The notes beneath the pieces were generated by a model. That model was given only the letters and a program-made list of their open reading frames with translations. It was not told where the DNA came from and ran no database searches. Below, piece after piece: positions 29,918 to 30,162 of a stretch of DNA of 50,611 nt (positions are counted from its first letter, which is position 1; each line of letters opens with the position of its first letter). Origin of the DNA: Acidobacteriaceae bacterium (GTDB taxonomy: Bacteria; Acidobacteriota; Terriglobia; Terriglobales; Acidobacteriaceae); contig DAHWKP010000159.1 of the NCBI GenBank assembly GCA_027343585.1, positions 1 to 50,611 on the forward strand, read 5' to 3'. The position numbers and the translations under genes are program-made.

Positions 29918-29946
29918 TTGACTGGGAAAAGCCCTTCCTGTACAGT
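29918..29946 (+). promoter_or_regulatory. candidate sigma70-type promoter for the met leader (TTGACT-N17-TACAGT)
   Basis: -35 TTGACT at 29918-29923, a 17-nt spacer, and -10 TACAGT at 29941-29946. This would give a very short 5' UTR before the leader ATG at 29958. Confidence 0.3.
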
Positions 29947-29957
29947 ACTTGCAGGTT

Positions 29958-30047
29958 ATGAAGCAAACAATCCAGCTCATGTCGATGTCGATGCGGATGC
30001 CAATGTGCATCCGTGGGCGGCTTCCTCTGGGCTTGCAACTGGCGTAA
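29958..30047 (+). CDS. candidate Met-rich leader peptide (29 aa) of the metY-metX operon
   Basis: Manual translation: MKQTIQLMSMSMRMPMCIRGRLPLGLQLA, ending in tandem stops TAA TAG. Five ATG codons at 29979, 29985, 29991, 29997 and 30003. Too short for the supplied track. Confidence 0.45.
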   Translation: MKQTIQLMSMSMRMPMCIRGRLPLGLQLA

Positions 30048-30074
30048 TAGACAAAGCAGCAGAGTAACAAGCGA

Positions 30075-30110
30075 CCCACGGCTCCACCGACCGAGCGTGG
30101 GTTTTGTTTT
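30075..30110 (+). terminator. intrinsic terminator / attenuator upstream of metY
   Basis: cccacg(g)ctc-caccgacc-gagcgtggg stem (9 bp with one bulge) followed by TTTTGTTTT (30102-30110). It lies 53 nt upstream of the metY ATG. Confidence 0.6.
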
Positions 30111-30162
30111 GCCCGGAAGAAATTGGAAACTGAGAAAAACTTCACAGCACTAGGAGAACTCC

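Follow-up and report, generated by a model that had tools for sequence, protein, structure and literature searches.

The metY-metX leader region

We examined the leader preceding metY-metX, a methionine-synthesis operon, in a 50,611-nt stretch of DNA (the window: contig DAHWKP010000159.1 of assembly GCA_027343585.1, from an Acidobacteriaceae bacterium), for which a model reading the letters and open reading frames had proposed a methionine-sensing, ribosome-mediated attenuator (the original prediction). The first gene, metY (30163..31488, + strand), encodes O-acetylhomoserine sulfhydrylase (homocysteine synthase) and is preceded by a Shine-Dalgarno sequence, AGGAG, read at 30152..30156 (+), 6 nt before the ATG. 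The second gene, metX (31492..32646, +), encodes homoserine O-acetyltransferase; it starts 3 nt past the metY stop codon and lies in the same operon. Both gene identities were upheld by profile matches: MetY matched Pfam PF01053 and scored 740 bits against NCBIfam NF006096 (cutoff 726), and MetX scored 393 bits against NCBIfam NF001209 (cutoff 331).

Upstream of metY lies a leader open reading frame (ORF) of 29 codons on the + strand, extending from ATG 29958 to TAA 30045-30047 and followed in frame by a tandem TAG (30048-30050); its predicted product is MKQTIQLMSMSMRMPMCIRGRLPLGLQLA. Five Met codons, with ATGs at 29979, 29985, 29991, 29997 and 30003, are packed alternately into 9 codons of this ORF (M-S-M-S-M-R-M-P-M; 29979..30005, +), and a Cys codon stands immediately 3' of the run (30006-30008, +). 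The ORF, its alternating ATGs and its tandem stops are as first described; the weak AGG reported ahead of the leader ATG is also present, spaced 2 nt from it and not 3 nt. The pattern ATGN3ATGN3ATGN3ATG occurs once in the 50.6-kb window, compared to an expectation of 0.01 from dinucleotide-preserving shuffles. Mini-ORFs with runs of other amino acids were sought across the window, and the matches were noise within coding regions.

Sequence reading and folding placed three helices and a terminator around and beyond the Met run (all +), at the positions given in the original prediction. Helix 1:2, the candidate anti-antiterminator, pairs CGGAUGC (29994-30000), including the fourth Met codon, with GCAUCCG (30007-30013), and the sole Cys codon of the leader also takes part in this helix. 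The antiterminator, helix 2:3, pairs CCGUGGG (30011-30017) with CCCACGG (30075-30081) and is extended inward by GCUU 30020-30023/AAGC 30069-30072 and by CUCUG 30025-30029/CAGAG 30060-30064. Helix 3:4, the terminator stem, pairs CCCACG(G)CTC (30075-30084) with GAGCGTGGG (30093-30101). The predicted intrinsic terminator (30075..30110, +) consists of this hairpin, CCCACG(G)CUC/GAGCGUGGG in the RNA (30075-30101), followed by the U-tract TTTTGTTTT (30102-30110); the hairpin energy is -13 to -16 kcal/mol (-16.3 in one fold, z = -2.7), and 52 nt separate the end of the T-run from the metY ATG at 30163. A simple terminator scan returned no site in the leader because of the bulged G, and the hairpin was recovered by folding. 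The metY Shine-Dalgarno sequence falls outside the alternative helices in these folds, with the terminator about 50 nt upstream of it.

The promoter that had been noted ahead of the leader, TTGACT-N17-TACAGT (29918..29946, +; -35 box 29918-29923, -10 box 29941-29946), was recovered by a promoter scan, and 11 nt separate the end of its -10 box from the leader ATG. A homologous promoter, TTGACA-N16-18-(G/A/T)ATACT, occupies the same place in nearly all of the related leaders described below. The -10 box to ATG distance is 11-12 nt in the window and in three related loci (L001, L007, L094), giving an implied 5' untranslated region (UTR) of about 4-5 nt; in leaders of the Terracidiphilus type this distance is 6-7 nt, which places the ATG at the usual position of the transcription start. 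Spacings of 6-12 nt imply a leaderless or almost leaderless ORF across the relatives. The original caveat that the promoter leaves almost no 5' UTR is true, yet the short spacing is conserved (6-7 nt in most relatives), and the missing 5' UTR and Shine-Dalgarno sequence are therefore a conserved property rather than a defect.

Related leaders and the probable reading of the ORF as codons

The catalogue of related leaders has 34 members, located upstream of metY-metX or hom-metY-metX, in about 15 sequence families, mostly from Acidobacteriota. The closest MetY loci are in Acidobacteriaceae and Terracidiphilus genomes and in peat and soil metagenome contigs; the exact window MetY protein was seen only in metagenome-assembled genomes (MAGs) and metagenome assemblies, where the leader is identical to that of the window save for one single-nucleotide polymorphism in the promoter spacer. 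The small ORF, the Met cluster and the terminator are conserved in orthologous leaders: 34/34 related leaders have a short in-frame ORF (20-46 codons) that contains an M-x-M-x-M(-x-M) run, and 33/33 leaders scanned have a GC-rich hairpin (-12 to -27 kcal/mol) with a T-run, 16-49 nt past the leader stop. Three loci (L006, L090, L161) have a hom gene (homoserine dehydrogenase) before metY-metX, and there the leader precedes hom, about 1.4 kb farther from metY; this indicates that the element tracks the start of the operon and not metY itself.

The leader is carried by about 31 of the 37 Acidobacteriaceae-like metY loci; of the six others, three had too little upstream sequence, two have a SAM-II-like element (L009, L102; see below), and one has a Cys-rich variant leader (L101). 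More distant examples were found in other Acidobacteriota (L056, L155), in a Vulcanimicrobiaceae MAG assigned to Eremiobacterota (L049), and on one contig of unknown phylum (L129). A protein-database search with the leader peptides matched only Terracidiphilus-type relatives, which are entered as "hypothetical protein" or unnamed; both of the matches whose genomic context was checked precede metY-metX or hom-metY. No leader turned up ahead of other met genes, in a search that covered the metY loci and the protein database but not whole genomes. A looser scan of 160 metY loci for Met-rich mini-ORFs returned candidates that were rejected: those in L034 and L105 are the MetX GHDAFL motif read out of frame, and that in L143 is an EDDDD stretch of the upstream gene. 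As a separate observation, one Terracidiphilus MAG locus (L005:821-866, - strand) contains an Acido-Lenti-1 RNA (RF01687; 37.9 bits, just over the gathering score) about 1.8 kb upstream of its metY leader.

Several lines of evidence suggest that the leader ORF is read as codons. When eight divergent leaders (58% identity) are aligned, no ORF columns are invariant other than those of three ATG codons and one adjacent base; in 28 aligned leader peptides conservation is confined to the Met positions. The codons between them differ widely (C, A, S, P, V, R, H, W, T, G), and some of the changes are synonymous (TGC/TGT, CGG/CGA). Within the ORF, the 19-sequence Terracidiphilus-type alignment (A1) has indels of 6 nt only; past the stop codon their length is 1-4 nt. 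In 34/34 leaders the Met run shares its frame with the promoter-proximal ATG and this frame is uninterrupted; the two remaining frames are open in just 11/34 and 14/34. The invariant Met codons, the 6-nt indels and the open frame argue for translation and against a frame-independent repeat bound by a protein or a ligand. From these sequence comparisons we infer that the leader ORF is translated, and that the five-Met run forms its regulatory codons is strongly supported. The Met codons alternate strictly with other codons (M-x-M) and are not contiguous.

The same data bear upon the idea of a factor-dependent attenuator, in which the spaced AUG triplets would bind a protein resembling TRAP or belong to a ligand-binding RNA. 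The triplets are strictly periodic, 3 nt apart, which recalls the (G/U)AG repeats to which TRAP binds, and no Shine-Dalgarno sequence precedes the window ORF. The frame evidence runs contrary to this idea (open in 34/34 leaders for the Met frame, about 35-40% for the others), as do the indels in multiples of 6 nt, the free variation of the spacer triplets, the presence of only 3-5 repeats, the absence of an Rfam riboswitch match, and the lack of a conserved unpaired core typical of an aptamer; we consider it very improbable. An even slighter chance attaches to the ORF encoding a functional Met/Cys-rich micropeptide, e.g., a metal-binding one, with the hairpin serving as a plain terminator without any switch. 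M-x-M and Cys motifs can bind soft metals, and some assemblies annotate the ORF as a hypothetical protein; however, the peptide is unconserved outside of the Met run and varies from 20 to 46 residues, its C-terminal conservation is accounted for by RNA pairing, the element was found solely upstream of methionine-synthesis operons among the loci examined, and a segment complementary to the terminator arm would be purposeless.

Cys codons are the other recurrent component of these leaders. Cys makes up 31/128 (24%) of the non-Met residues within the run or no more than 4 residues after it, compared with 6/272 (2%) elsewhere in the peptides and 1.1% in MetY plus MetX, and 15/15 family representatives have at least one Cys in this region. 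This raises a refinement of, not a replacement for, methionine sensing, namely that the interleaved or trailing Cys codons are also regulatory and that the leader is a dual, or mainly a cysteine/sulfur, sensor. Some variants that have lost Met codons keep their Cys codons (MAMCRCRSW in L084, CPRCRCM in L101), the MetY family includes bifunctional O-acetylhomoserine/O-acetylserine sulfhydrylases, and poly-Cys attenuators within leaderless small ORFs (sORFs) are known in mycobacteria (bioRxiv 10.1101/834739). To be set against this are the single Cys codon of the window, itself within helix 1:2; the Cys positions, which lack the invariance seen for Met positions; and the chance that UGC/UGU codons are favoured for RNA-level reasons. 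We hold this refinement to be possible, leaning somewhat toward doubt.

The variant leaders were noted in their own right: in the run of L101 (ORF MGLRRLSLAACPRCRCMRIDTGDSGDWPRG, about 200 nt upstream of metY), L084 and L082 (MDLCMCM), ATG has given way to AGG or CTG, or most Met codons are missing, with the Cys codons, promoter and terminator intact. They may represent decaying or Cys-skewed versions of the attenuator.

Competing helices and predicted switching

Covariation in the helices was found between the window and its nearest relative, L001 (84% MetY identity), whose leaders align in register. Every pair (20/20) in helices 1:2 and 2:3 and in the outer stem of 3:4 is standard in both sequences, with five compensatory changes and three one-sided wobble changes between them. 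Helix 1:2 keeps 7/7 pairs with one compensatory and two wobble changes, helix 2:3 keeps 7/7 pairs with two compensatory changes, and the terminator stem 3:4 has two compensatory changes. Columns 165 and 167 of segment 3 each covary with both their segment-2 and segment-4 partners, and columns 96 and 97 of segment 2 change compatibly with segment 1 and segment 3; such three-way covariation is the signature expected of mutually exclusive helices.

In the Terracidiphilus type, RNAalifold gave a long 1:2 hairpin around the Met run (GGUC, ACGGA and CUCAAGG paired with GACC, UCCGU and CUCUUGAG), a hairpin over the stop codon, and the terminator. This terminated conformation was 94% paired over the 19 sequences, and its covariation exceeded that of 500/500 shuffles and of all slid controls; the antiterminator of this type, GGACCCG with CGGGUCC, was 86% paired. 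Helix 1:2 is thus longer and covaries in the Terracidiphilus type, whereas in the window it has 7 bp. Two further features of this type were observed: an invariant hairpin, UGCG-CUAGG-CGCA, which spans the leader stop (alignment A1 columns 98-125, e.g., L003:2861-2885), and a highly conserved ACCGAUCUUGAAG after the stop-codon hairpin, between the ORF and the terminator. Either or both might be a pause signal or have some other role.

The segment that follows the last Met codon differs from family to family (CCGUGGG, UGCGGG, GUGGGU, GGACCCG, CUGGCG..GGGUU), and in most leaders it complements the 5' arm of that leader's own terminator. The antiterminator arm starts 5-9 nt past the last Met codon in most families, and about 15 nt past it in L006/L090 (CUGGCG..GGGUU). 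The cognate pairings of segment 2 with the terminator arm averaged -14.5 kcal/mol, as compared to -11.8 for non-cognate pairings, and none of 20,000 permutations was as good (p ~1e-4). This permutation test replaced a per-sequence shuffle test of segment 2:3 complementarity, which had been weak (mean z = -1.3; p < 0.05 in 8/33 leaders) and is low-powered because the sequence is GC-rich.

The effect of ribosome position was assessed with a masking model, in which the RNA covered by the ribosome (about 12 nt, counted from the start of the A-site codon) was removed and the remainder folded at equilibrium. For the window the probability of the terminator was 0.49 with the ribosome on Met codon 1, fell to 0.002, 0.000 and 0.000 on Met codons 2, 3 and 4, and rose to 0.97 at the stop codon. 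With the ribosome on Met codons 2-4 the model gave an extended antiterminator over 30011-30081, including further inner pairs, and with the third or fourth Met codon occupied, when RNA from 30003 or 30009 on is available, the antiterminator was the minimum-energy fold. Because the antiterminator loop contains the leader stop codon, a terminating ribosome would physically block this structure, in agreement with the classical model. A clean switch was predicted for the window, L001, L006, L090, L092 and L094, and a switch at some Met codons only for L004, L007, L049 and L129.

Taken together, the leader is likely to be a functional ribosome-mediated (leader-peptide) transcription attenuator of metY-metX that answers to the supply of Met-tRNA, a confidence that derives from strong comparative evidence (sequence, conservation, covariation and thermodynamic feasibility). 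The original interpretation along these lines is strongly supported by the conservation, the covariation, and the absence of a riboswitch match (below). The transcription start site, ribosome stalling on AUG, and responsiveness to methionine or cysteine are parts of the model that we infer.

According to this attenuator model, the conserved promoter would direct transcription to start a few nt ahead of the leader ATG in the window and at the ATG itself in most relatives, and a ribosome would begin the 29-codon ORF while RNA polymerase is still within the leader. When Met-tRNA is plentiful, the ribosome would cross the Met run and segment 2 and reach the tandem stops inside the would-be antiterminator loop; segment 3 would then pair with segment 4, the terminator would form, and transcription would end at 30102-30110. 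When Met-tRNA is scarce, the ribosome would stall on Met codons 1-4 (29979-29999), melting or blocking helix 1:2 and leaving segment 2 (30011-30017) free to pair with segment 3 once it is made; the terminator would be prevented and the polymerase would proceed into metY-metX.

A number of observations weigh against the attenuator and are gathered here. The 5' UTR of the window is only 4-5 nt and has no usable Shine-Dalgarno sequence, so that initiation of leader translation has to be assumed. A second sigma-70-like site, TTGGCA-N18-AATAAT (29801-29830, +; 10/12 match in the promoter scan), lies 120 nt upstream of the leader promoter, overlapping the start region of a divergent gene, and could yield a long untranslated leader. 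The helices had been called mutually exclusive; this holds for the competition of 2:3 with 3:4, but helices 1:2 and 2:3 share only 3 nt and are not strictly exclusive, and slightly shortened forms of the two co-occur in the full-length minimum-energy fold. The folding energy of the whole leader is unremarkable compared to shuffles (z = -1.4 to -1.9), no antiterminator covariation was found within the Terracidiphilus-type group, and the weak result of the per-sequence shuffle test, given above, belongs here as well.

Three results of the folding model point the same way. Naked full-length window RNA favours the antiterminator (terminator probability 0.015), opposite to naked L001 and Terracidiphilus-type leaders, which favour the terminator. 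A ribosome on Met codon 5 favours termination (0.81), in keeping with the original caveat that a ribosome at the last Met codon would occlude segment 2; it is the stalls on codons 2-4 that give the antiterminator. Many Terracidiphilus-type leaders show little or no switch, because their terminator (about -23 kcal/mol) is far stabler than the 7-bp antiterminator. The terminator of E. coli trp is likewise stabler than its antiterminator, the choice there being kinetic, and we treat the weak switching predicted for the Terracidiphilus type as a limit of equilibrium modelling and not as counter-evidence to an attenuator.

The flanking features are as follows. The divergent gene is methylisocitrate-lyase-like (prpB-like; 28881-29807, - strand), and its start is ambiguous: the longest ORF, from TTG 29807, has 308 aa, compared with 290 aa in public gene calls. 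The 355-nt gap upstream of metY in the original prediction holds for the TTG 29807 start, and becomes about 409 nt under the public 290-aa call. At the other end of the operon, the terminator scan located a perfect 12-bp GC-rich hairpin, ACGGGCACAGAC TTCG GTCTGTGCCCGT (32726..32753, no strand assigned), between metX and the convergent rplQ-rpoA genes, these neighbours being identified as L17 (rplQ) and RpoA; its T-run is on the minus strand. It is probably the operon end, as a shared or bidirectional terminator.

Comparison with known systems

The control of methionine genes is classically by repressors (MetJ, MetR, McbR), SAM (S-adenosylmethionine) riboswitches, or T-boxes. SAM riboswitches (SAM-I/S-box, SAM-II, SAM-V) occupy the same regulatory niche before met genes and sense SAM via an aptamer without an ORF, whereas the window leader matches no SAM, SAH (S-adenosylhomocysteine) or T-box model: Rfam gave no gathering-score match in the window or in 20 related loci, and at E-values up to 10 the region 29780-30200 matched just a CRISPR repeat and a long noncoding RNA, both by chance. 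Two loci without a Met leader, L009 (a Terriglobales MAG; 341-411, +) and L102 (a metagenome contig), have CGTGGCGATTTAAGG..ACTTGCTCCACG.AAAAAACTGCTAAAGA and a terminator ahead of metY. The L009 element scored 22 bits with the SAM_alpha and SAM-II models, below their gathering scores of 36 and 44; the element of both loci may be a divergent SAM-II-like riboswitch, below Rfam thresholds, that does the same job as the Met leader.

Leader-peptide attenuation in its classical form is described for Trp, His, Leu, Thr, Phe and Ile/Val, and for Cys in a translational form. In the literature we found no described Met leader-peptide attenuator of biosynthetic genes, and the sole precedent was the "metL" peptide MSTTSDRTPATEATTTPGARCMCRRMCAF of Streptomyces lividans TK24, a leaderless product encoded ahead of metNIQ and proposed to be methionine-dependent (Droste et al. 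2021, PMC8079986). It is an RNA-seq-based annotation in a single genome, with no typical Rho-independent terminator and a termination mechanism that its authors describe as unclear (PMC8079986). The S. lividans metL shares with the present leaders the leaderless start and a C-M-C...M-C motif like the M/C interleaving seen here; it differs in having two internal Met codons only, in preceding a methionine importer and not biosynthetic genes, and in having neither comparative nor experimental backing. No methionine attenuator was reported in a comparative study of Actinobacteria (PMC1262725), and acidobacterial attenuators were noted to be essentially unannotated (Naville and Gautheret 2010, PMC2965389).

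The polycysteine leaderless sORFs of mycobacteria, where ribosomes stall on Cys codons and thereby de-repress sulfur-metabolism genes (an effect of these codons that was shown experimentally), likewise have a leaderless sORF with sulfur-amino-acid codons (Canestrari et al. 2020, bioRxiv 10.1101/834739). They act translationally, with the stalled ribosome keeping the downstream ribosome-binding site unsequestered (bioRxiv 10.1101/834739), and they have consecutive Cys codons, no terminator/antiterminator, and actinobacterial hosts; by contrast, the window has a single Cys codon and a canonical terminator, and the Cys codons of its relatives are mostly interleaved with Met. TRAP-type attenuation uses 9-11 frame-independent triplets to which an oligomeric protein binds, as against the 3-5 AUG repeats, always in frame, of the present leaders.

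A wider reading, toward which we lean less than halfway, is that these leaders are the first well-supported family of Met-specific attenuators, widespread in Acidobacteriota (with an isolated Eremiobacterota MAG and a contig of unknown phylum), and that they combine a dual Met/Cys sensor of strictly interleaved M-x-M codons, usually M-C-M, with a leaderless transcript. In the latter, RNA polymerase and ribosome would start at the same nucleotide, so that both initiation (with formylmethionyl-tRNA, fMet-tRNA) and elongation (with Met-tRNA) would depend on methionine. A conserved Met-codon attenuator would mean that the ribosome-stalling solution was reached for methionine too, in a large and poorly studied soil phylum. 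It would give an annotation rule for dozens of "hypothetical protein" mini-ORFs, a natural system for AUG stalling on leaderless mRNAs (AUG being both the single Met codon and the start codon), and a compact methionine-responsive genetic part; it also raises the possibility of combined Met/Cys sensing.

The nearest likeness of the window leader is to the classical attenuators of enterobacteria (trpL, hisL, leuL, thrL, pheL, ilvL/ivbL), which share segments 1-4 with the alternative 1:2/2:3/3:4 helices, an intrinsic terminator before the first biosynthetic gene, and, as modelled here, the logic of transcription-translation coupling; a leader ORF, a cognate codon cluster, a terminator and a competing antiterminator are all present in the window. 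No sequence or Rfam similarity joins the window leader to the classical Trp, His, Leu and Thr leader families. Compared to the classical attenuators, the AUG codons of the window and its relatives are interleaved (M-x-M-x-M) and not contiguous, Cys is co-enriched, the ORF is at or near the 5' end of the transcript without a Shine-Dalgarno sequence, and the hosts are Acidobacteriota; compared to the trp paradigm, helices 1:2 and 2:3 of the window overlap by only 3 nt, and the naked RNA prefers the antiterminator. The element would thus belong to a textbook class of mechanism, within which its amino-acid specificity, codon arrangement, leaderless start and host phylum are different and essentially undescribed.

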